NCBI GenBank assembly: GCA_017676145.1
Contig: GCA_017676145.1_3628.1
DNA length: 64,000 nucleotides
Strand: one strand, 5' to 3'
Source: a phage
How positions within the stretch are numbered: the first letter of the stretch is position 1; each line of letters starts with the position of its first letter. The translations under genes and the position numbers were made by a program. Under the pieces are notes generated by a model that was not told where the DNA came from, did no database searches, and was given only the letters and a program-made list of their open reading frames with translations. Positions 5,499 to 34,606 of this stretch are shown piece after piece.

Positions 5499-6741
5499 AT
5501 TGCAAACCCACCGGAGCGAAAGGTATGTCATCACAGAAGTCATACTGTGCTGGATTCTGATCCATTGGGTCATCTTCCGCATCATCTACAGGAGGGGCGT
5601 CTACAGTGTTTTGCTGTGGAGTGGCTTCCTGTTTGGCAGCTTGAGGTTCTTGATGCTCAGTAGTCCCCGCACCATTCTTGATCCAATCGTACAACGGTTC
5701 AGCAAGATTAGTCAAGACATCTTTTGCCTCTGCAGTAATTGCTGCTGCAAAATCATCAACTTTCGTTTTCTTGTCAATACGGCGACAAGCGTTCAATACC
5801 GCGTTACCAACACTGGCACCTACTTCATCTTCAGTCCGGTTGGTGGCTTGAGCGTACTCTTTCTTAAGCTCGATGGTGACCACGTGCAATGTTTTAGCCA
5901 CATCTAAAGGGCTGTCAATCTTAAACCCGCGATCCAGAATGATCTGCAACGCATTGATACTGTGCCCTGTCTCTACACCAATGGGGTCGTAAGAGGATTT
6001 ACGCTTACCACCAGAACCTTGTGTACCGTTCTCTGCTTTAGGCGGGTAGGCCTTGAAGCCGCTGATAATATTCCCGGTGTCTTTGTCAACAATAGCTGCA
6101 ACACGACCGCCAACCACCAGATCTTTAAGCTGCTCATCAGTGACAACCATGGCACCTTCGCCAATCTTGTGGTCATTAACAGTAACCACGTTGCCAACAA
6201 TCTGAGTCACATCGCCATAGATGCGTAAAACGTCCTGATTGGCATTCTGCTGAGGTTTCTGCTTCTGACCTTGTGATTGTGCACCTTGTTGCTGTTTTTG
6301 TTGCTGTGGAGCTGCTGGAGCCTCTCCTGCACCCAGTTTGACCATCTTAGCCAGTGAGCCTTTGTAATAGGTCTTACCGTTATGCTCATTTGCCTTTAAA
6401 GGGATATTTACGATCCATCCTGGCGTTACTGTTTCCCACTTGTCATCAATTTTAACAGAGACGGAATCTTGATGACCAGGTTTGAGCAATTTATCACCCA
6501 TGCTGATCCAAACTTCTTCACCACCTTGAAGTAGGTTATCAGAAGAATCCAGTTCAGAAATCAGTAAAGAGATGGTATGGCTGGACTCGATTTTCTTACC
6601 TTGCCACACAGTGGTTTTAATACCTGTTGTAGGATCGGCACCTTTGATAGGCTTGATGCTGACACGTTTAATCATGCCGTGAGCCAGTAAAACAGTTTCA
6701 CGCGGATTCATCGGGTTAGCGAATTGTTGAATAACGCTCAT
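5470..6741 (-). CDS. Putative single-stranded DNA-binding protein
   Basis: 423-aa ORF; Q-rich linker [25 protein letters not shown]; acidic C-terminal region [23 protein letters not shown] containing the SSB-type DDIPF tip motif, followed by 15 further residues. Confidence 0.45.
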
Positions 6742-7151
6742 TATTTATCTCCTTGTTCTTCGTTAGTGTTTGCCGTGTGTGCAAACCCTGCTTGAATTAA
6801 TTTGTCCTGAACTTGAGCCAACAGGCCCATTGCAAAACTTGTGGTCCCAGAGAGGGCCATCAGCATATCTCGTTGTTGAGCTACCCAACCTAAGGCATAG
6901 TCCAAACGACGATATTTTTCTTCTTCACGCAGAGCCTGGAATAATTGTTCAGCCTCTGGCTGTTGTGTAAGCTCCTGAAGTCTTCCCATGAAAGAAGAAA
7001 GCACTAGCAGAAGAGACACTTGATCTTTACTTAACCCTAAGAAAAATTCTTGAGGTTGTTCTTGCTCGTTCATCGCAACCGACGCTTGATCGTTCATTTG
7101 TTCCATTGTGGAATCTCCGATTTTATTTGAACAACATAAAGGAGACACCAT
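6741..7151 (-). CDS. Hypothetical protein
   Basis: 136-aa ORF, Q/E-rich; in co-directional array. Confidence 0.4.
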   Translation of the reverse strand: MVSPLCCSNKIGDSTMEQMNDQASVAMNEQEQPQEFFLGLSKDQVSLLLVLSSFMGRLQELTQQPEAEQLFQALREEEKYRRLDYALGWVAQQRDMLMALSGTTSFAMGLLAQVQDKLIQAGFAHTANTNEEQGDK

Positions 7152-23761: not shown

Positions 23762-24946
23762 TCAAGCTTTAGCTAAAATGGCGCTAAACTCTTCACCAAA
23801 CTCTTTTACAATCTTCATCAGGTTTGGGTATGCTTTGATCAGCTGAGCAACGATCTTGTCCCGGCCTTTACCAATAAGTAAGGCATTTCCTAGGGCGTTG
23901 GGTTTCATCATCGCCATAAAGACTGAGAATACAAAGTCTCGGTTCTCATCCTTGAAATTTTCCCAAAGGAAATCAAGGAAGTTTGCCACGCAGCTAACAA
24001 GATCTTCGTCTGAGACACTTGCATTTTCCATCATATTCCGAATAGCAATACAACCTTCAGACCCAAGAATCCACAAAATATCTGGCTGCTTAGGACCTAC
24101 ATACTCTTTGCAACCCCCTGCCATAATCCGACCGATTTCTGGCAAGTTTCGTTTCTTGGTGTGGTAGGTCCAGATTTCTACCGCTGCAGTGTGACCAATA
24201 GCACCTTGCAGAAGAACACGAGCCATAGCGTCAGAAATAATACCGCTGTCAAAATCGTGCAGGATGTCAGATGCAGCAACCCAAGATCGCGGTGTAGCAA
24301 AAGATGGACAATTAATCTCAGCCATAGCCTCATAATTATCGATAGCTGATGGAACTCTTTTCAGATATCCAATTACAGAGGAATGCACACCATTAAGGAA
24401 TGCGTAGTCCTCAATAAATACCTCTGCACTGCTTGTAACTTCTACAATGATAAAGCGGTTAGCCAGAGGGGCTTCGAGCGCTGAAAGAACAGCACCATCC
24501 GTAGCACGGTTACCTGCAGCTACAAAAACAGAGCCCTTAGGAAATGCATAGGTGCCGCACTTGTGGTCGAGCATAATTTGCATTGCAACCTTCTGCAGGT
24601 AGTTATCTGCATGAGTAAGCTCATCCAGAAAGATAATTCCGCTCCAGTCCGAGTCTGCAGGCCAAAATTCTGGAATTGCAAACACTGTGCGTGTAGTTCC
24701 ATCTGCCTCTACAGGGATAGGTAGTCCAGACAAGTCAGCAGGATCTTTATCTGACAGCCGCACGTCAACCAGGTTGTCATCTCGCTCACCGAACATATTA
24801 TCAGCAATCTGCTTCATCACCTGGCTCTTCCCCACACCCATCGGTCCTAAAATCAGGACAGATCGGTTATGACGCTGGGCAAATTGAATAATAGCTGGCA
24901 ACTCGCGGACAGTGATTTGACCACTTTCGAATACGTTTCTTGACAT
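23762..24946 (-). CDS. MoxR-family AAA+ ATPase (CbbQ/NorQ/CobS-like)
   Basis: 394 aa; Walker A LILGPMGVGKSQ; Walker B IIFLDELTHAD; sensor AAGNR; single AAA module of MoxR size. Confidence 0.8.
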   Translation of the reverse strand: MSRNVFESGQITVRELPAIIQFAQRHNRSVLILGPMGVGKSQVMKQIADNMFGERDDNLVDVRLSDKDPADLSGLPIPVEADGTTRTVFAIPEFWPADSDWSGIIFLDELTHADNYLQKVAMQIMLDHKCGTYAFPKGSVFVAAGNRATDGAVLSALEAPLANRFIIVEVTSSAEVFIEDYAFLNGVHSSVIGYLKRVPSAIDNYEAMAEINCPSFATPRSWVAASDILHDFDSGIISDAMARVLLQGAIGHTAAVEIWTYHTKKRNLPEIGRIMAGGCKEYVGPKQPDILWILGSEGCIAIRNMMENASVSDEDLVSCVANFLDFLWENFKDENRDFVFSVFMAMMKPNALGNALLIGKGRDKIVAQLIKAYPNLMKIVKEFGEEFSAILAKA

Positions 24947-27512: not shown

Positions 27513-27525
27513 CACGTTTTTGAGG

Positions 27526-27554
27526 TTGACATATTCCCAGGCACTTGATAAGAT
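27526..27554 (+). promoter_or_regulatory. Sigma70-like promoter (plus strand) TTGACA-N17-TAAGAT
   Basis: TTGACA at 27526-27531, 17-bp spacer, TAAGAT at 27549-27554; about 30 bp upstream of the ATG at 27586; back-to-back with the minus-strand promoter. Confidence 0.5.
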
Positions 27555-27585
27555 TTCTCCACCTACAGAGCACAAGAGACAACTC

Positions 27586-28575
27586 ATGAATCTTGAAAAA
27601 TATTATACACCAGAAGAGTTAGAGCGCCTGCTCAAAAAATACAGACGCAAACAAAATAATGCACGGAAACGAGATATAGAGTTCAACCTGTCGTGGGAAG
27701 AATACCTCCTATTTGGTAAAAAACTTTTAGGAGAGGGGGTATGCGACTATACCCTTATACCTTTCGACATGCACACAGATGAAAACGGGCTGGGGAATCC
27801 TTTCTACCCATCTCTGGAGCGGATAGATGATGAAGGTCCTTACGCAATTGATAACTGTTGTGTGGTAGGATTGAGGTGTAACTCTCTGAAAGACTGCCTG
27901 GTAGATAAAAAGACCGCAATCTTGATTAAAGACAAAACTGATCGAAAAATTGTCCAGCAGATGATGCTCCACCTGAGCGAAGAGCGCATGGAGAAATTGA
28001 AAGGTGATTACACTTTTGAAGATTTCATCTTGCAATATGGGACGGAAGAGGATAAACTGGCACTCTTTGACGAAGAATGGGAGGAAGATATGTCACCAAT
28101 GCAGGATTTTAAAAACTTCATGGCTAACCGTGGAGCCAACAAGCACATTTCTGACATTGTAAACGAGCCTGCAGCAGAGGAGATTGAAGAAGTGGAGCAA
28201 CAGGCTTACGAAGAGGAAAAAGAGCCTCAAGGGGACGAAGAAGAGCTTACAGAAGAGGTTCCTGCACTGCCTGACGATGTTGAGATTGCCAAAGCTTACA
28301 CTTTCTATTGTCAGACGTTCTACGATGCAGGTATGAAAGTTGATCTGTCATTCAGTCAATTTAAGAGCACGTACATTCGAAAATGTTGTGCTTTAACTGG
28401 TGAGCGTCTCGGGGTCGGACTTAAACCACTATTAGTGACCGACTGGAATAAAGGTTTCACCAAGGGCAACTTTATGGTAGTATCTCCAATTATGGAGAAG
28501 GCTATGACAGACCTTATGAAGACCACTCGCATGACAATGACCGAGTTGGCTGGTATTTTCAAGCACGTTAAATAA
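27586..28575 (+). CDS. Protein with duplicated degenerate HNH-like module and acidic linker
   Basis: Two related segments (CDYTLIPFD...PSLERIDDEGPYAIDNCCVV and CALTGERLG...LLVTDWNKGFTKGNFMVV) flank an E/D-rich linker; the PSLERIDD...Y..DN motif echoes the 4875-5498 product; ATG at 27586 preferred over the TTG at 27520. Confidence 0.45.
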   Translation: MNLEKYYTPEELERLLKKYRRKQNNARKRDIEFNLSWEEYLLFGKKLLGEGVCDYTLIPFDMHTDENGLGNPFYPSLERIDDEGPYAIDNCCVVGLRCNSLKDCLVDKKTAILIKDKTDRKIVQQMMLHLSEERMEKLKGDYTFEDFILQYGTEEDKLALFDEEWEEDMSPMQDFKNFMANRGANKHISDIVNEPAAEEIEEVEQQAYEEEKEPQGDEEELTEEVPALPDDVEIAKAYTFYCQTFYDAGMKVDLSFSQFKSTYIRKCCALTGERLGVGLKPLLVTDWNKGFTKGNFMVVSPIMEKAMTDLMKTTRMTMTELAGIFKHVK

Positions 28576-28608
28576 TGACAGGGGCCAATGGCCCCTTCTG
28601 GAGTTTTA

Positions 28609-30069
28609 ATGGATAGCAGAAGTTCAGAAATCATTGCCGCACAAAAAGATGACGCCTTGCGAATGCTGCAGGCAGCACGCATGTATCTTCTTGAAAAGCT
28701 GCCGTTTTATGGCACACTGTTGTCAGGGTTGCAGTTCGTAGAAAACCACACATGGTGCTCCACTATGGCAACAGACCATAAACGCATTTATTACAGCCCT
28801 GAGTTCATTATGGGGTTGGCGGATGAGCGCAAAACCATTCTTAAAGCATCTTTGACTGACAAGCAGTTTGAGATGGCTGAGGTTTTCTATTCCCCAAAAT
28901 CTGTGAAAGAGGTGGCATTTCTTCTATCGCATGAGGTGGGGCATATTATCTGTGATCATCTGGTCCGTGGCAAAAGTTTTGAGCCGGAGCTGTTCAATAT
29001 TGCCTGTGATCATGTTATCAACACAGGTCTTGTGGTTGACTTTAGCAAGCCTCCTTGTGTTTTCTTCCCGAAGGGGAAAAGCACTACGTTTGTAAAAGGT
29101 AAGCCTTTTGGCTTCTTAGCTAGTTGCTACTGTGACATGAGGTTCCATGGATGGATTGCTGAGAACGTCTATGCGGTTCTTGATAAGCAAAGAGATCAGA
29201 ATAGCGGTAAAAGTAAGAACGGTAAAGGCGAGAGCTCTCAAGGAGATAAACGACAAACCGATGATCACATGAGTGGTAACGGTGGCACTAGCGATGATCT
29301 TGGAAAGGCGATGGGGTATGATCAGCCACAACCAGTGATCAGTCAATCTGATAAAGATCAAGCCATGCAGGACTCTGGTGACATGTTGGAAGCAGCAATG
29401 CAGGCTTCCGGAGGTCGTTGCCCTGAGGCTGTGCGTGAGTTTGTCAAGAACAGAGGTAAGCCTGTAATCAATTATATAGACATCATTAAGCAACGTATGC
29501 TGTCTAAACGAAAGGCTGAACTAACCTATAGAAAACCCGGTCGCCGATCTGGGTCTTTGACCAGCACAATGCGAAAAGTTGGGGCTATAAACAAGAATCA
29601 GCACGTTGTTGTTCCAGGTCGTAATCCGGAAAACACTATAGATATTGTGGTGGCTCTAGACGTTTCTGGATCGATCTCCCAAAGAACTTTAAAGAAAATG
29701 TTCAATGAGATCACTGGGTTGTGCAATCTGTATAAAGAGTTCAAGGTTACGATGTTCTGCTGGTCAACCGAGGTTGGAGAGGTTAAAGTATACACTCGTG
29801 GGAACATCGACGAGATGATCAACTATGAGGTCCACTCAACATGGGGAACAACAGCCGCTTGCGTGTTCGAGTATCTGGACGCTAACATACCAAATGCAAA
29901 AGATGTCATCGTCCTGACCGACCTATACTTTGAGCATAACTTTGAACAAAAGGCTGTTGACAACAAGTGGAAAAAGTACGATACTCTATGGGTCCTCACT
30001 GAAGGGTATAATAAAAATTATATCCCGAGCTTTGGGAAAACTGTGGAATTAATCGAGTACGCTAAGTAA
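28609..30069 (+). CDS. vWA-domain protein with N-terminal HExxH metallopeptidase-like domain
   Basis: HExxH zinc-binding motif LSHEVGHIICDH; C-terminal vWA MIDAS motif VVALDVSGSIS; ATG at 28609 with GGAG RBS preferred over the track start at 28588. Confidence 0.7.
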   Translation: MDSRSSEIIAAQKDDALRMLQAARMYLLEKLPFYGTLLSGLQFVENHTWCSTMATDHKRIYYSPEFIMGLADERKTILKASLTDKQFEMAEVFYSPKSVKEVAFLLSHEVGHIICDHLVRGKSFEPELFNIACDHVINTGLVVDFSKPPCVFFPKGKSTTFVKGKPFGFLASCYCDMRFHGWIAENVYAVLDKQRDQNSGKSKNGKGESSQGDKRQTDDHMSGNGGTSDDLGKAMGYDQPQPVISQSDKDQAMQDSGDMLEAAMQASGGRCPEAVREFVKNRGKPVINYIDIIKQRMLSKRKAELTYRKPGRRSGSLTSTMRKVGAINKNQHVVVPGRNPENTIDIVVALDVSGSISQRTLKKMFNEITGLCNLYKEFKVTMFCWSTEVGEVKVYTRGNIDEMINYEVHSTWGTTAACVFEYLDANIPNAKDVIVLTDLYFEHNFEQKAVDNKWKKYDTLWVLTEGYNKNYIPSFGKTVELIEYAK

Positions 30070-30084
30070 GAGAGGGGGTTATTT

Positions 30085-30348
30085 ATGGCAACAGAGTTAA
30101 AATTTGCATCAAACCGTAAAACTAAGAAATATCTGTCCTCAGTGGCTCCAGGCACTGTGGTGATGTTTGTTGATGAACTTGGGGATGTGAATACAGCACT
30201 TGTTGTAAAATCACATCCTGCAAACATATATGTTGGGGTATTTGACCTGTTCAGAAAAGTGTTTGTAGAACTACCCCACAGTTTAGTTGTTACAGAAATG
30301 GATGCCTGCATAGAAATTCTTGGCGAAGTTATGGTGGAGGAACAATAA
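30085..30348 (+). CDS. Hypothetical protein, tandem paralog 1 of 4
   Basis: 87 aa; GAGGGGG RBS; same length and K-rich N-terminus as the next two copies. Confidence 0.6.
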   Translation: MATELKFASNRKTKKYLSSVAPGTVVMFVDELGDVNTALVVKSHPANIYVGVFDLFRKVFVELPHSLVVTEMDACIEILGEVMVEEQ

Positions 30349-30611
30349 TGGCTACTAGCATTGTATTCAATTCTAAGGTGAAGAACAAAAAGCGTGCAGA
30401 CAGCTTTCCGTGTGGGACCGTGGTAAGTTGCGACGGAGACGGCATTCAAAACATAGTTATGATTGTCAAAACAGGAGAACATTGTGTGTGGGGGTTCGAT
30501 TTAGAAAATAATGAGTTGTACGATCTGCCACCAAACATGAAAGTTACAGAGCTTGACACCAAAATTACCATCCTTGGAGAGACAAGCTATTCAAAAGAAG
30601 GAGGAGAATAA
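30348..30611 (+). CDS. Hypothetical protein, tandem paralog 2 of 4
   Basis: 87 aa; ATG overlaps the upstream stop (translational coupling). Confidence 0.6.
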   Translation: MATSIVFNSKVKNKKRADSFPCGTVVSCDGDGIQNIVMIVKTGEHCVWGFDLENNELYDLPPNMKVTELDTKITILGETSYSKEGGE

Positions 30612-30874
30612 TGACCACAAAAATCACTATCGCAGAACCGAAAGCTAACACTCAACCTATCGAAAAGTTTAAATGCGGGGAGGTGGTAACATTTACACCA
30701 GATAATGAAGATGCTAAGATTTTCGCCATGGTCACAGCTGAGTGGATGTGTGACAATACCACACAGGTTCTGCGTTTTGACACCTATCTTACAGATGAAA
30801 TCAGGAACGATAAGATCGTGACTGGTGTGGATACTGAGATTATTTTCTACAAGAGCTTTTTAGAGGGTTTCTGA
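30611..30874 (+). CDS. Hypothetical protein, tandem paralog 3 of 4
   Basis: 87 aa; ATG overlaps the upstream stop. Confidence 0.6.
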   Translation: MTTKITIAEPKANTQPIEKFKCGEVVTFTPDNEDAKIFAMVTAEWMCDNTTQVLRFDTYLTDEIRNDKIVTGVDTEIIFYKSFLEGF

Positions 30875-30875
30875 T

Positions 30876-31109
30876 ATGGCAAAAATTCGTAAATTATCCA
30901 GCAATCAAGTTGTGAAAGACTTTGAATCTGGAGAGATTCTGTATGTTCGTGATGCAGATGACGAAGGTGAAGATCTTGTTATGCTAGTAGGACACGCTGA
31001 AGACGGATGCATACAGGCTGTTTTTCTTGAAACAGCTATGGTGCACTGGATAGAGCTGGACCTGAAAGCACGAAAACCTAAAGCAGAGATCCTGATTTAC
31101 GAAGATTAA
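30876..31109 (+). CDS. Hypothetical protein, tandem paralog 4 of 4
   Basis: 77 aa; similar layout, acidic core DADDEGEDLVMLVGHAEDG. Confidence 0.55.
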   Translation: MAKIRKLSSNQVVKDFESGEILYVRDADDEGEDLVMLVGHAEDGCIQAVFLETAMVHWIELDLKARKPKAEILIYED

Positions 31110-31124
31110 CAAAAGGAGAGAGCC

Positions 31125-31574
31125 GTGTTGAGCAAACGTGAATGCGACAGCATCAGCCTGAATTCTTATAAAAAACAATGGTTTGGGGTAGAAGTTTGCC
31201 GACTGCGGCTAGGCTCCTACCTGAACTTCGTTTATTACGAGAGCGACAGTCGTATAGTTTCTTATGAAGTGTTCTACACTAAGAATACATTCGAACTACG
31301 CCGTAAAGTGGACGGAGGGAGAACTACCACCCAGAATAATTGGGAAACTATTCTGCCCCCGGATGTTATAGGTAGTCCCCTGAATGTATCTGAAGATGAA
31401 AATCTTATGGTTCATGCTATGATGGGACTTGACAGCTTAGAGCTGGCGATCTATGATATGTCCATCGAAGCAGTTAAGCTGGACTACATCGAAAACACTT
31501 TAGAGGAAGGTATCAAGAAGTTTCTCGGTGAGAAATTGAAAGCCCACTTTCATAAGGAGCTATATCTGTTATGA
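31125..31574 (+). CDS. Hypothetical protein
   Basis: 149 aa; GTG start preceded by AAGGAG. Confidence 0.5.
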   Translation: MLSKRECDSISLNSYKKQWFGVEVCRLRLGSYLNFVYYESDSRIVSYEVFYTKNTFELRRKVDGGRTTTQNNWETILPPDVIGSPLNVSEDENLMVHAMMGLDSLELAIYDMSIEAVKLDYIENTLEEGIKKFLGEKLKAHFHKELYLL

Positions 31575-31816
31575 AGACCCGTAAAGAACGTAACAAGATT
31601 TTACCTGGCGCTCTCGAACACATGATGAAGTGCAGATCTATCTGGCACTCTGCCAAGGAGGGGCAGCATGTGGTCGTGGTTAGTGATAATGCCAACCCAT
31701 TCGGTGATTATGTCACCATGATGACTCCATACATCCGCGACGGTGTTGTGGAAGTGGTTCCTTATAGCGGTCTGCATGAGAGGCATTTTGAGAGCACTTT
31801 GCTAGTGGAGCTATAA
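31571..31816 (+). CDS. Hypothetical protein
   Basis: 81-aa ORF; start overlaps the upstream stop. Confidence 0.45.
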   Translation: MKTRKERNKILPGALEHMMKCRSIWHSAKEGQHVVVVSDNANPFGDYVTMMTPYIRDGVVEVVPYSGLHERHFESTLLVEL

Positions 31817-31818
31817 TT

Positions 31819-32385
31819 ATGGCGGTCAATGTGTCTTACAACACAGGAAAGCTTGACAGGGACATTGGGTGTCTTGTCCTTTCAGATACAGAGGAGTATT
31901 GGGGTTATGGGTTGCTGTCAGACCCACACCCGAGCAATCTTGTATCAACAGTGCTATATCGCTACGACCCTGTGCCAACGGTACACGACAAAGATATTCA
32001 CGACCTTCGGATCAAGTGCCTGGAAGATCTTCTGAACAATGGCTGCAACGATCTGCAGGTAGCCAAGGAGAAGCTTACAAACATCCACAAGGAGGAGGTG
32101 ATGAGCACCCTCAGTAAGAGGTCAGTGCACAAAAAGATGATGCTGAACTTTGCAATGGGTATCTACATGGATGGGTATAAGGGTGGGGATCCGATCCTCA
32201 AGCTTCGCTGCCCAACACTGTGGGAAAGAGTGGTTGACAGTAAGGACGGTACTGCTCTTCTTGAGCTCCACACTTCGGGTTGGATATGGAAGTATGTGGA
32301 CGGATACCCTCTGTGGGCATGTGGAGCTGGCGAGTTTGTTGACAGACCTAGCGCGGTGGTGGACTTGCTATTGCAGTTTGAATAA
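31819..32385 (+). CDS. Hypothetical protein
   Basis: 188 aa; GGAG RBS. Confidence 0.5.
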   Translation: MAVNVSYNTGKLDRDIGCLVLSDTEEYWGYGLLSDPHPSNLVSTVLYRYDPVPTVHDKDIHDLRIKCLEDLLNNGCNDLQVAKEKLTNIHKEEVMSTLSKRSVHKKMMLNFAMGIYMDGYKGGDPILKLRCPTLWERVVDSKDGTALLELHTSGWIWKYVDGYPLWACGAGEFVDRPSAVVDLLLQFE

Positions 32386-32441
32386 AAGGTGAGTTATAAG
32401 GCATTTATACACTTATCAACAATACAACAGGAGAGACTGAG

Positions 32442-32717
32442 ATGACGAAAGAAGAGGCAGATGTATTAGACTTTGCATTAGAAGCTACGCAGGAGGCTTT
32501 GGTGTTGGCTTGGAAAATGAACCAGCGTGCTGCAGAATGCAACCGCCGCATCAATGAGATTCTAGGCATGTCTATGTATGATTTCACTATGCATGCTGGA
32601 GAGATTCCTGAATTAACTGCTGAGATGAATGATCTTGACAATAAAATTAATATCATTCTGAAGACAGCAGAAACAACTCACCAAACCGCCCGTAAATTTA
32701 TCAACGAGAAGGTGTGA
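32442..32717 (+). CDS. Hypothetical protein
   Basis: 91 aa; GGAGAG RBS; looks helical (judged by eye). Confidence 0.45.
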   Translation: MTKEEADVLDFALEATQEALVLAWKMNQRAAECNRRINEILGMSMYDFTMHAGEIPELTAEMNDLDNKINIILKTAETTHQTARKFINEKV

Positions 32718-33193
32718 ATATGGACTACAGCTACTGCGGAGAAGAAGTACCTTTTAACTACAGCAATCTCACCACGAGCAATCCATATGAGACTCGTCAC
32801 GGCACACACATCATTGCTATTGACTTTGATGGAACGTTTAATGCGAGCCCTTTCATCTTCTCCCGCCTTATTAAGGACCTGAAGAAGGAAGGGTGGACAG
32901 TCTATCTTGTGACTTTCCGATTCATAACTCAAGACAATGTGGACATCGAATACTGGCGCAAGGAGCTAGATGTTGGAGTGTTTTATACTGGAGGTGTTCA
33001 GAAGGCTGCTTATCTGGCTCAGTTTGATATCTACCCGGACATCTGGGTTGATGATTCTCCAGCTTGCATTCCAGCCAAGAATCAGCTAGAGTTTGCAATG
33101 AAGGAGATCAAGTATAAGTCTGACGCTAAACGTAACGGATGGCCCTTTATTATTGAAGATTACCCAGATCCTGAACCGGAGAAAGAGCCATGA
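32714..33193 (+). CDS. HAD-superfamily phosphatase (possibly a 5'(3')-deoxyribonucleotidase-like enzyme)
   Basis: HAD motif I IIAIDFDGTF (DxDGT); motif IV-like IWVDDSP; 159 aa. Confidence 0.55.
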   Translation: MNMDYSYCGEEVPFNYSNLTTSNPYETRHGTHIIAIDFDGTFNASPFIFSRLIKDLKKEGWTVYLVTFRFITQDNVDIEYWRKELDVGVFYTGGVQKAAYLAQFDIYPDIWVDDSPACIPAKNQLEFAMKEIKYKSDAKRNGWPFIIEDYPDPEPEKEP

Positions 33194-33360
33194 AACGAAG
33201 ATACCATTACTTGATGTGGAAGTTATATCAGGGTGCTGCTAAAACTTATCGCACCGTGTTTGGTAATGACAATCACTATATTGTGTTACACCTTGCCGCC
33301 ATTAAGCATCACAATGAGTGGATTCGTGCAATCGTAATAGGTGACAAAGACTTTAAGTAA
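33190..33360 (+). CDS. Small hypothetical protein (56 aa)
   Basis: ATGA overlap with the HAD gene stop (translational coupling); MKRRYHYLMWKLYQG...; not in the 60-aa ORF track. Confidence 0.3.
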   Translation: MKRRYHYLMWKLYQGAAKTYRTVFGNDNHYIVLHLAAIKHHNEWIRAIVIGDKDFK

Positions 33361-33411
33361 GGTATGCCTCAAAAACGTAATAGTGTGGATTTCTAAATGG
33401 AGACTGATTAA

Positions 33412-33792
33412 ATGTGCAAGTGTAAATCCTATAATTGGAAAGTGAAAGGTGCCAAGCATCAAAATGTTATCGTTGATGTGCCTAAAAAGCTCCGTGACGG
33501 CAAAAAACGTGTGTGCCTTGGTAAGTGCATGGCTAAACCTATCATGAGCTTGTGGGCAGCAGGATTGAAGACTCTAAACTGCTGCTGTGGTCATAACAAA
33601 GATGCTCCAAGCATCATTATCCCAGAGGATGCAGACCCTAAAGCTTATGCCAAAATACTGACTCGCTACCCCAGCACCTTTCTGATCGGAAAATGGTGTC
33701 ACGATGAACTTCAATGGTGGATAGCATACGGCAGCATAGGTACTGCTGTTGGCTTTCCAGCTTTGTCAGAGCGCTACGTCAAAGTGTCATAA
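33412..33792 (+). CDS. Cysteine-rich hypothetical protein
   Basis: 126 aa; MCKCK...CLGKC...NCCCGHN, likely metal-binding. Confidence 0.45.
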   Translation: MCKCKSYNWKVKGAKHQNVIVDVPKKLRDGKKRVCLGKCMAKPIMSLWAAGLKTLNCCCGHNKDAPSIIIPEDADPKAYAKILTRYPSTFLIGKWCHDELQWWIAYGSIGTAVGFPALSERYVKVS

Positions 33793-33894
33793 TCGATTTT
33801 AAGGCCTCAAACGAGGCCTGTGCCTTCATAAACTTCCTACCTATGTGCGATTACCCTTCTGAATAAAATACCCTCTCAAATTGCTTAAAATTAA

Positions 33895-33923
33895 GCTTGA
33901 CACTAACACCAGATTTATATATG
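33895..33923 (+). promoter_or_regulatory. Sigma70-like promoter (plus strand) TTGACA-N17-TATGAT
   Basis: TTGACA at 33895-33900, 17-bp spacer, TATGAT; follows the hairpin aggcctc-aaac-gaggcct (33802-33819); precedes GAGGAG RBS and the ATG at 33956. Confidence 0.4.
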
Positions 33924-33955
33924 ATTATCTCACCAACCCAACAGAGGAGATTGTC

Positions 33956-34363
33956 ATGGATAATCTTGCAAGTGTAAACGTAGAAATTGTTAAACTAAAG
34001 TTCTTGGGCTTTCGAGACCCTAATTCTCTAACAGCTATACTGATGGATACCCACTTCACACCGGGGAAAGAGTACACTGCCTTCCGTTATACTCACGGAG
34101 ATCACGAATCGGCCTATAGTGTGAATACAAACCTCGGTGAGGGATATTTCATCAGAGATATCACAGATCACTTGTGGGGTATGTGGGAATTGGTGGGAGA
34201 AGAGAATAAATCCCTTCCCAAAGAGATTTGGGTGCACACCTTCCACACAGGGAAGTTTGGTGGAACGGAGCATAAATCTATCCACTATGATGAAGGAAGT
34301 GCCATCAAGCAACAAGCTGTGCTTGGCGGATCTGTAGAAAAATTTGTTAAATGCGAGGACTGA
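33956..34363 (+). CDS. Hypothetical protein
   Basis: ATG at 33956 (MDNLASV...) with GAGGAG RBS, preferred over the track start at 33881. Confidence 0.5.
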   Translation: MDNLASVNVEIVKLKFLGFRDPNSLTAILMDTHFTPGKEYTAFRYTHGDHESAYSVNTNLGEGYFIRDITDHLWGMWELVGEENKSLPKEIWVHTFHTGKFGGTEHKSIHYDEGSAIKQQAVLGGSVEKFVKCED

Positions 34364-34366
34364 GAA

Positions 34367-34567
34367 ATGGCTGATTTTTGTAAAGATTGCTCTGAAGAGT
34401 TGTTTGGCTTTGACTGCAAAGATTTGGAAGGTCTGATCACTGAGGATCAGTGGAAGGAAGGCTATGCAGCACCTGTTATTTGTGAAGGTTGTGGCTATAC
34501 CTATGTTGACCATAAAGGTAAGCGCGTCAAGCCGTCTGAAGATGGGGCATGTTGGGAGTATTACTAA
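34367..34567 (+). CDS. Small zinc-ribbon protein
   Basis: 66 aa; CKDC...CEGCG. Confidence 0.45.
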   Translation: MADFCKDCSEELFGFDCKDLEGLITEDQWKEGYAAPVICEGCGYTYVDHKGKRVKPSEDGACWEYY

Positions 34568-34571
34568 CTAT

Positions 34572-34606
34572 AAAAAGAAAGGGGCCGTTTGGCCCCTTTT
34601 TTATTT
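34572..34606. terminator. Bidirectional rho-independent terminator between convergent plus and minus blocks
   Basis: Hairpin ggggcc-gttt-ggcccc (34581-34596) flanked by aaaaagaaa upstream and tttttt downstream; lies between the plus-strand stop (34567) and the minus-strand stop (34616). Confidence 0.8.

Follow-up and report, generated by a model that had tools for sequence, protein, structure and literature searches.

Gene duplication is the best explanation for four consecutive small genes in an rV5-like Vequintavirus phage of E. coli. Overall, we read these genes as an array of duplicated small beta-barrels that are accessory to the phage and bind host proteins, and we give this reading a probability of about 0.45. 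Paralogy, fold class and accessory status of the four genes are, taken together, very probable, and the function is put forward as a candidate. The evidence comes from the gene layout, from profile comparisons within the family, from structure prediction, from the distribution of family members among related phages and from published transposon data on a phage that carries three family members.

Gene organization of the locus

The window, i.e. the whole stretch of 64,000 nucleotides that was analysed, derives from an rV5-like Vequintavirus phage of E. coli. Between positions 28588 and 32400 it has 94–95% nucleotide identity to more than 100 rV5-like phages (genus Vequintavirus), e.g. Murica, APECc02 and B9-1. 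The elements of the locus are the following.

27520–34599, + strand: transcription unit containing the array (rV5 genes 11–26), running from a divergent promoter region to a bidirectional terminator, as proposed from gene layout, a hairpin and PMC3606486
28588–30069, + strand: DUF2201 metallopeptidase/VWA-like gene, 493 aa (PF13203, E = 6e-28; PF09967, E = 3.6e-11), the upstream anchor of the slot
30085–30348, + strand: o1, 87 aa, slot-1a paralog, phrog_10698, equivalent of rV5 gene 13
30099–30600, + strand: exchangeable cassette, delimited by blastn breakpoints against FV3-type loci
30348–30611, + strand: o2, 87 aa, slot-1b paralog, phrog_10698
30611–30874, + strand: o3, 87 aa, phrog_12861, a diverged paralog and the one under the strongest constraint
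30876–31109, + strand: o4, 77 aa, most diverged paralog, phrog_12046
31125–31574, + strand: o5, 149 aa, phrog_6790, the conserved gene that bounds the slot downstream

The initial annotation of this DNA had described four consecutive head-to-tail ORFs of 87, 87, 87 and 77 aa, and all four are present exactly at the positions listed here, on the + strand. The o1/o2 and o2/o3 junctions both read TAATG, with one base common to stop and start. A 1-nt spacer (TGAtATG) separates o3 from o4, and there are 15 nt between the stop codon of the metallopeptidase gene and the start of o1. A Shine-Dalgarno-like GGAGG/GAGGG motif precedes each start within the final codons of the preceding gene, and the Glu/Gly-rich C-termini of the array proteins are partly explained by the ribosome-binding site of the next gene being located there.

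Transcription units have been proposed for phage rV5, in which gp11 is an Srd-like anti-sigma factor (PMC3606486); the same paper does not mention the four genes or their paralogy. A terminator-like hairpin at 34578–34599 matches the proposed end of the unit. The array operon has the Srd-like anti-sigma gene nearby and the rIIA/rIIB and MoxR genes opposite, and the MoxR-like ATPase gene (23762–24946, − strand) and the DUF2201 gene on the + strand flank the divergent promoter region. Closely packed in this non-structural operon of rV5 genes 11–26, o1–o4 are presumably co-transcribed, and their junctions suggest translational coupling.

More than 100 genomes of related phages have CDS annotations for all four genes, whose products are listed there as hypothetical proteins (e.g. 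Murica genes 13–16). An antisense ORF at 30018–30482 (154 aa) was treated as spurious. Several names in the region that derive from PHROGs seem misleading. ‘HNH endonuclease’ is the label of both the metallopeptidase/VWA protein, which Pfam assigns to DUF2201_N/DUF2201, and the Srd-like anti-sigma factor (27520–28575), and PHROGs and several GenBank records call o5 a ‘tail protein’. Furthermore, 16 ‘Campylobacter phage’ records (host C. jejuni) are at least 94% identical to E. coli rV5-like phages in this region and are probably mislabelled or contaminant genomes.

A superfamily of diverged paralogs

The equal lengths of the four products could be coincidental, only o1 and o2 being related and o3 and o4 being unrelated ORFans. 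PHROGs splits them in just this way into three separate families, with o1/o2, o3 and o4 as full-length members of phrog_10698, phrog_12861 and phrog_12046, respectively (E = 1e-41 to 1e-62; 7.6e-43 for o1 in phrog_10698). In BLASTP, o1 and o2 are 37% identical (E = 2.7e-12), and the window's o3 and o4 have no direct match to other members; with the first, shallow profiles, o4 remained within noise. Profiles that include intermediate sequences, however, connect all four products over nearly their full length and far above the nulls obtained from ORFs and shuffled sequences. A profile of the o1/o2 family that included oX, the allele found at this place in FV3-type phages, aligns with o3 over 77 columns (hhalign P = 1.1e-5, probability 82%). 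When this profile was run against a null set of 86 window ORFs (60–130 aa, both strands), its best match other than its own members was o3 with a score of 32.6, the next being 21.6 over 9 columns.

The more distant o4 is reached through additional members. When 1.84 billion cluster representatives were searched exhaustively by HMM, only nine clusters matched, two of which, P0030 and P0031, are new. Once these two sequences and a diverged o3 (P0016) were added, a profile free of o4 aligned with the o4 family over 69 columns (hhalign P = 1.3e-6, probability 90.6%), with P ranging from 1.3e-6 to 2.8e-6 over 66–69 columns. The score of o4 against the o4-free profile is 34.6, compared with 16.4 for the next-best ORF of the window and with a mean of 9.9 (sd 2.1, maximum 18.9) for 150 shuffles of o4.

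Pairwise comparisons along the chain o2–o3–o4 agree with the profiles. The FV3 allele of o4 aligns with o3 without a gap over 70 aa (pairwise BLASTP E = 4e-5), and Smith-Waterman permutation gives p ∼1.7e-3 for o2–o3, 3.6e-3 for o3–o4 and 1e-4 for o3 against the FV3 o4. P0031, which is a single-copy relative, matches oX (E = 7e-9), o2, o3 and o1. MAFFT alignments of the members are collinear, and similarity declines with gene order from slot 1 to o3 and then to o4. Coincidence of length is thus rejected statistically and is extremely improbable. The paralogy proposed in the initial annotation is upheld, significant and collinear similarity over nearly the full length being found among all four products, and sequence comparison identifies o1–o4 as true, anciently diverged paralogs that belong to one superfamily uniting three PHROGs. 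At the DNA level no repeats are detectable among the four genes, where only matches of 16–21 nt with 71–81% identity occur; the duplications must be old because similarity between the genes is essentially gone.

A search for further members found none in the window and none in the other 72 kb of the Murica genome (43–115 kb), where 154 ORFs reach scores of at most 15.6. The product of o6 (31571–31816, 81 aa) was considered as a fifth member, given a Smith-Waterman p of 0.007 against o4, and was rejected, with hhalign scores of at most 13.6 and no profile support.

Predicted fold and charge distribution

No known fold had been recognised in these proteins initially, a statement now superseded by AlphaFold2 models of o2 and o4, according to which o1–o4 are predicted to be single-domain, SH3/Tudor-like small beta-barrels of ∼9–10 kDa. 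The o2 model has a pLDDT of 77 and a pTM of 0.62 (9-sequence family alignment) and the o4 model a pLDDT of 83 and a pTM of 0.70 (14 sequences). Both models consist of beta-strands only, and the strands common to the two follow one another in the same order. They do not constitute independent tests of a common fold as they were computed from pooled-paralog alignments. In o4, which lacks four N-terminal residues and the ‘TELD’ strand motif, the modelled N-terminal strand pair is absent and the last strand of o2 has no counterpart.

Structure matches of the two models in BFVD overlap and comprise uncharacterised phage proteins of 70–90 aa, including N4 gp21 and proteins of phages 172-1, NJ01, LAMP, ES17, EP335 and Erwinia phage Cronus; the o4 model also matches the BFVD entry for o1. 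These likenesses correspond to Foldseek TM values of 0.6–0.7 to the o2 and o4 models, with E-values of only 2e-3 to 4e-2 and no sequence homology. N4 gp21 was tried as a homolog and rejected, the similarity being structural only (hhalign P = 0.05). Sequence searches of the array proteins gave no match above noise in Pfam, including no SH3, Tudor, KOW or S1 family, no match in NCBIfam or PADLOC and no match with E < 1 among PDB sequences.

Compared with known SH3-like, Tudor and KOW domains, e.g. the C-terminal domain of ribosomal protein L2, the Tudor domains of PHF19 and SMN or the C-terminal Tudor domain of UvrD/PcrA, the array proteins differ in several respects. They are strongly acidic, stand-alone and phage-encoded, o1–o3 carry an extra N-terminal strand pair ahead of the barrel, and no aromatic-cage or RNA-binding signature was identified in them. 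The only residues invariant across the family are Met1, one Gly and one Ile, for which reason nothing points to an active site.

Such fold neighbours suggest nucleic-acid-binding regulators of the Tudor, KOW or L2 type, whose targets would be RNA or DNA of the phage or the host. The charge distribution argues against this function, since all four proteins are acidic overall (pI 4.5–5.0) and the barrel bodies have a net charge of −7 to −9. The K-rich N-terminal 20 aa noted at the outset as a shared feature are found in o1 and o2 (net charge +4) but hardly in o3 and o4 (net charge +1), so that the basic N-terminus is not conserved. Together with the lack of sequence matches to the KOW, S1, Tudor and SH3 families, this makes nucleic-acid binding very improbable.

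Growth and remodelling of the array

In the phage collection the family is restricted to Vequintavirus (118 records), and word-indexed protein searches and IMG/VR scans yielded only near-identical Vequintavirus copies. The family is lineage-specific and variable in copy number: the number of genes in the slot is one in L012 (a metagenomic sister lineage), three in FV3-type phages and four in rV5-type phages and in L017. Outside the family's range the slot is empty: in Avunavirus, Seunavirus and Mydovirus the metallopeptidase gene is followed directly by the o5 homolog, and in Certrevirus by a gene of o5-like size, with no array in either case. In L012 the metallopeptidase is 61% identical to that of the window and synteny is complete, with exactly one family member, P0031, and the o5 homolog next to it. 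L017, with a metallopeptidase 82% identical, has four genes whose products are 58% (o1′), 70% (o2′), 96.6% (o3′) and 94.8% (o4′) identical to those of the window.

The first slot differs between Vequintavirus phages by exchange of a cassette. Among the 118 records, 44 carry o1 and o2, and the other 74 carry the single gene oX instead. Nucleotide homology to FV3-type phages ends at 30099 and resumes at 30600, with the same breakpoints in four loci (blastn), and the swap replaces o1 and o2 (∼500 nt) with oX (∼230 nt) in surrounding DNA that is 88–97% identical. The idea that oX is a recent chimera of o1 and o2 produced by unequal crossover was rejected, as its identity to each of them is only ∼40% throughout.

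Single members also occur away from the slot. A distant lineage, with a metallopeptidase 41% identical, has a solo gene that is either o3-like (82% aa and 81.6% nucleotide identity) or oX-like (61%). The o3 gene is the only strong nucleotide match between this lineage and the array region, which indicates horizontal transfer of a single gene. The solo member is always found next to a Cys-rich gene of ∼142 aa (MCKCKSY...CCCGHNKH; L015, 1621–2052; L020, 2558–2986), on one side of it in L015 and on the other in L020.

On our reading, the array grew by duplication from a single gene of the kind located between the DUF2201 metallopeptidase/VWA gene and o5 in the sister lineage. Later changes were the exchange of cassettes in the first slot and the horizontal spread of individual members. 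A possible ancestral source was sought in genes of ∼86 aa with the motif ‘FKVGDRV’ in Avunavirus, Seunavirus and Mydovirus and was not supported (hhalign P = 0.016). These genes lie directly upstream of the metallopeptidase gene (L002, 3692–3955; L003, 3668–3928; L004, 3697–3957), and have a motif that looks like the beginning of an SH3-like strand; at the P value just given, they are not significantly similar to the array proteins.

Two further observations concern the L012 contig (123.6 kb). The homolog of o7 (window 31819–32385) is tandemly duplicated there (5938–6531 and 6577–7128; 197 and 183 aa, 26–29% identical to o7), i.e. the same operon shows another local duplication. At 1119–2258, just upstream of the anti-sigma-like gene, is an IS605 OrfB/TnpB-like gene (Cas12f1-like TNB), a transposon-associated nuclease gene located in the genome of an apparently lytic myophage.

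Selection acting on the four genes

The suggestion of a rapidly evolving family does not apply to the array as a whole. The dN/dS analysis proposed with it reveals purifying selection on every gene, with values of 0.01–0.03 for o3, 0.02–0.17 for o4 and ∼0.15–0.17 for o1 and o2 (0.01–0.17 overall). The o3 and o4 proteins are among the best conserved of the region, being 95–97% identical in L017, where flanking proteins are 37–82% identical to those of the window, and the 82% identity of o3 in the distant lineage contrasts with the 41% of its metallopeptidase. When o3 is compared with L011 and L007, synonymous divergence is nearly saturated (∼40–45 differences) and the protein is 93–94% identical, which indicates that alleles of old origin, very strongly constrained, have passed between lineages.

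Rapid change is confined to the first slot, where diversity is concentrated and alleles are 40–70% identical. This diversity arises via replacement of the cassette with its sharp boundaries at 30099 and 30600, and no evidence was obtained that it originated in an arms race of point mutations.

Dispensability and candidate functions

Transposon data are available for Bas54 (phage MaxBurger), whose gene essentiality was mapped in the HIDEN-SEQ preprint (10.1101/2025.11.20.689424). The products of bas54_0053 and bas54_0052 are 100% identical to o3 and o4, respectively, and bas54_0054 is the oX allele. On K-12, bas54_0054, bas54_0053 and bas54_0052 are non-essential, with insertions in 17/17, 13/15 and 12/12 TA sites (10.1101/2025.11.20.689424). 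The preprint's data also include a comparison of K-12 with a single clinical isolate, the identity of which is ambiguous as sheet Data S6 is titled K-12 vs CFE303 and the command line uses ‘311’ data. In that sheet, the log2 fold change in the isolate is +0.46 for oX (adjusted p 1.0), +0.33 for o3 (adjusted p 1.0) and −1.32 for o4 (adjusted p 0.68), compared with −7.23 for the MoxR ATPase (bas54_0063, adjusted p 0), −2.20 for the DUF2201 metallopeptidase (bas54_0055, adjusted p 0.009), −5.48 for bas54_0140 (unknown, adjusted p 0) and −2.3 for o5. MoxR and bas54_0140 are reported in the preprint to be needed to overcome the DS-28 system (10.1101/2025.11.20.689424). On these data, o3, o4 and oX are dispensable on laboratory E. 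coli (K-12) and show no significant requirement in the one clinical isolate whose comparison was used here. Nor do the array products have the profile of structural components of the virion: they are non-essential, the virion proteins that the rV5 paper names in its main text do not include them, and names of the gp13–16 style are absent from its supplements.

The location of the array suggests that the barrels could assist the phage MoxR ATPase and VWA/metallopeptidase, a pair that a published screen links to overcoming DS-28, and could serve it as adaptors, substrates or regulators, each paralog recruiting or gating a different client. The DUF2201 gene is linked to the family in every context: members lie directly downstream of it in the window, at the tight 15-nt spacing, and also in L012 and L017, and in L020 it is in the same operon, ∼2 kb upstream. 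In the sheet of the preprint cited above, MoxR and the metallopeptidase were conditionally required in the clinical isolate and o5 and o4 tend in the same direction, but insertions in oX and o3 were not depleted where those in MoxR and the metallopeptidase were. Phage N4 has homologs of the pair, gp24 and gp25, and its structural analogue gp21 is encoded just upstream of them, yet gp21 is without sequence homology to the array. Moreover, the metallopeptidase occurs without the family in four other genera of Vequintavirinae and in numerous N4-like and jumbo phages, and linkage may merely reflect a common accessory operon. A partnership with the MoxR/VWA module is for these reasons unlikely. A narrower version is distinctly improbable, in which the barrels would be swappable target-recognition adaptors and the host immune protein passed to the MoxR AAA+/VWA-metallopeptidase for remodelling or cleavage would differ from one paralog or slot-1 allele to the next; if true, the array would be a modular specificity cassette set for protease-based counter-defence.

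Small beta-barrels often oligomerise, and the paralogs could be subunits of one hetero-oligomer, as in Sm/Lsm-type rings, with gene packing ensuring equimolar synthesis. Overlapping stop and start codons and the conserved gene order would fit such an assembly, as would o3 and o4 of L017, which have a similar dS of ∼0.67 where the flanks are saturated and were apparently inherited or transferred jointly. A common assembly is, however, difficult to reconcile with copy numbers of one, three or four, with a slot 1 that is swapped independently of o3 and o4, and with solo members in L012, L015 and L020, which imply that single members work alone. The models also lack the N-terminal alpha-helix of the Sm/Hfq-like fold, no helix of four or more residues being present in that of o2 or o4. 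Assembly of this kind is improbable.

The function that we favour, tentatively, is that of stoichiometric, non-enzymatic binders or inhibitors of host proteins; inhibitors with different targets, the hypothesis of the initial annotation, would be of this kind. Each barrel would bind one host protein during counter-defence or host takeover, with target specificity set by variable hairpin loops. The paralogs and the interchangeable slot-1 alleles may then cover different targets or host variants, slot 1 being the diversifying position. Homology to a characterised anti-defence protein was not found, and the literature yielded no described function or paralogy of the array genes.

Significance and relation to known systems

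The family is previously undescribed and of a familiar kind, that of duplicated small accessory phage genes. PHROGs 10698, 12861 and 12046 are three unannotated and unrelated families in that resource; here they form one superfamily with a common origin and a predicted fold. Their merger comes with a history that leads from one copy to three or four, with cassette swaps and single-gene transfer. The array is a small group of candidate host-interaction genes, amenable to genetics, in Vequintavirus, phages that are widely used for biocontrol of E. coli O157 and are part of the BASEL collection. Natural variants with one, three and four copies and existing transposon libraries of one member phage make function easy to test. 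A genuine link to the MoxR/VWA-metallopeptidase pair would help to explain a widespread and unexplained phage module; if the link is not real, the array represents ordinary accessory-gene duplication in a large lytic phage.

The closest parallels are tandem groups of small accessory early genes in lytic phages, e.g. anti-CRISPR and other anti-defence clusters and the internal-protein genes of T4. Clusters of the Acr type generally combine unrelated genes, whereas the four genes of the array are true paralogs as judged from their profiles. A further difference from anti-defence clusters is that o3 and o4 are strongly conserved and not diversifying. In the preprint's isolate comparison, the single data set used for this point, no significant requirement tied to the host was seen either. 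In other respects the resemblance is close: like these clusters and the T4 genes, the array is composed of small, non-essential and lineage-restricted genes located in a non-structural operon, and it shows copy-number variation, allele replacement and transfer of single cassettes.
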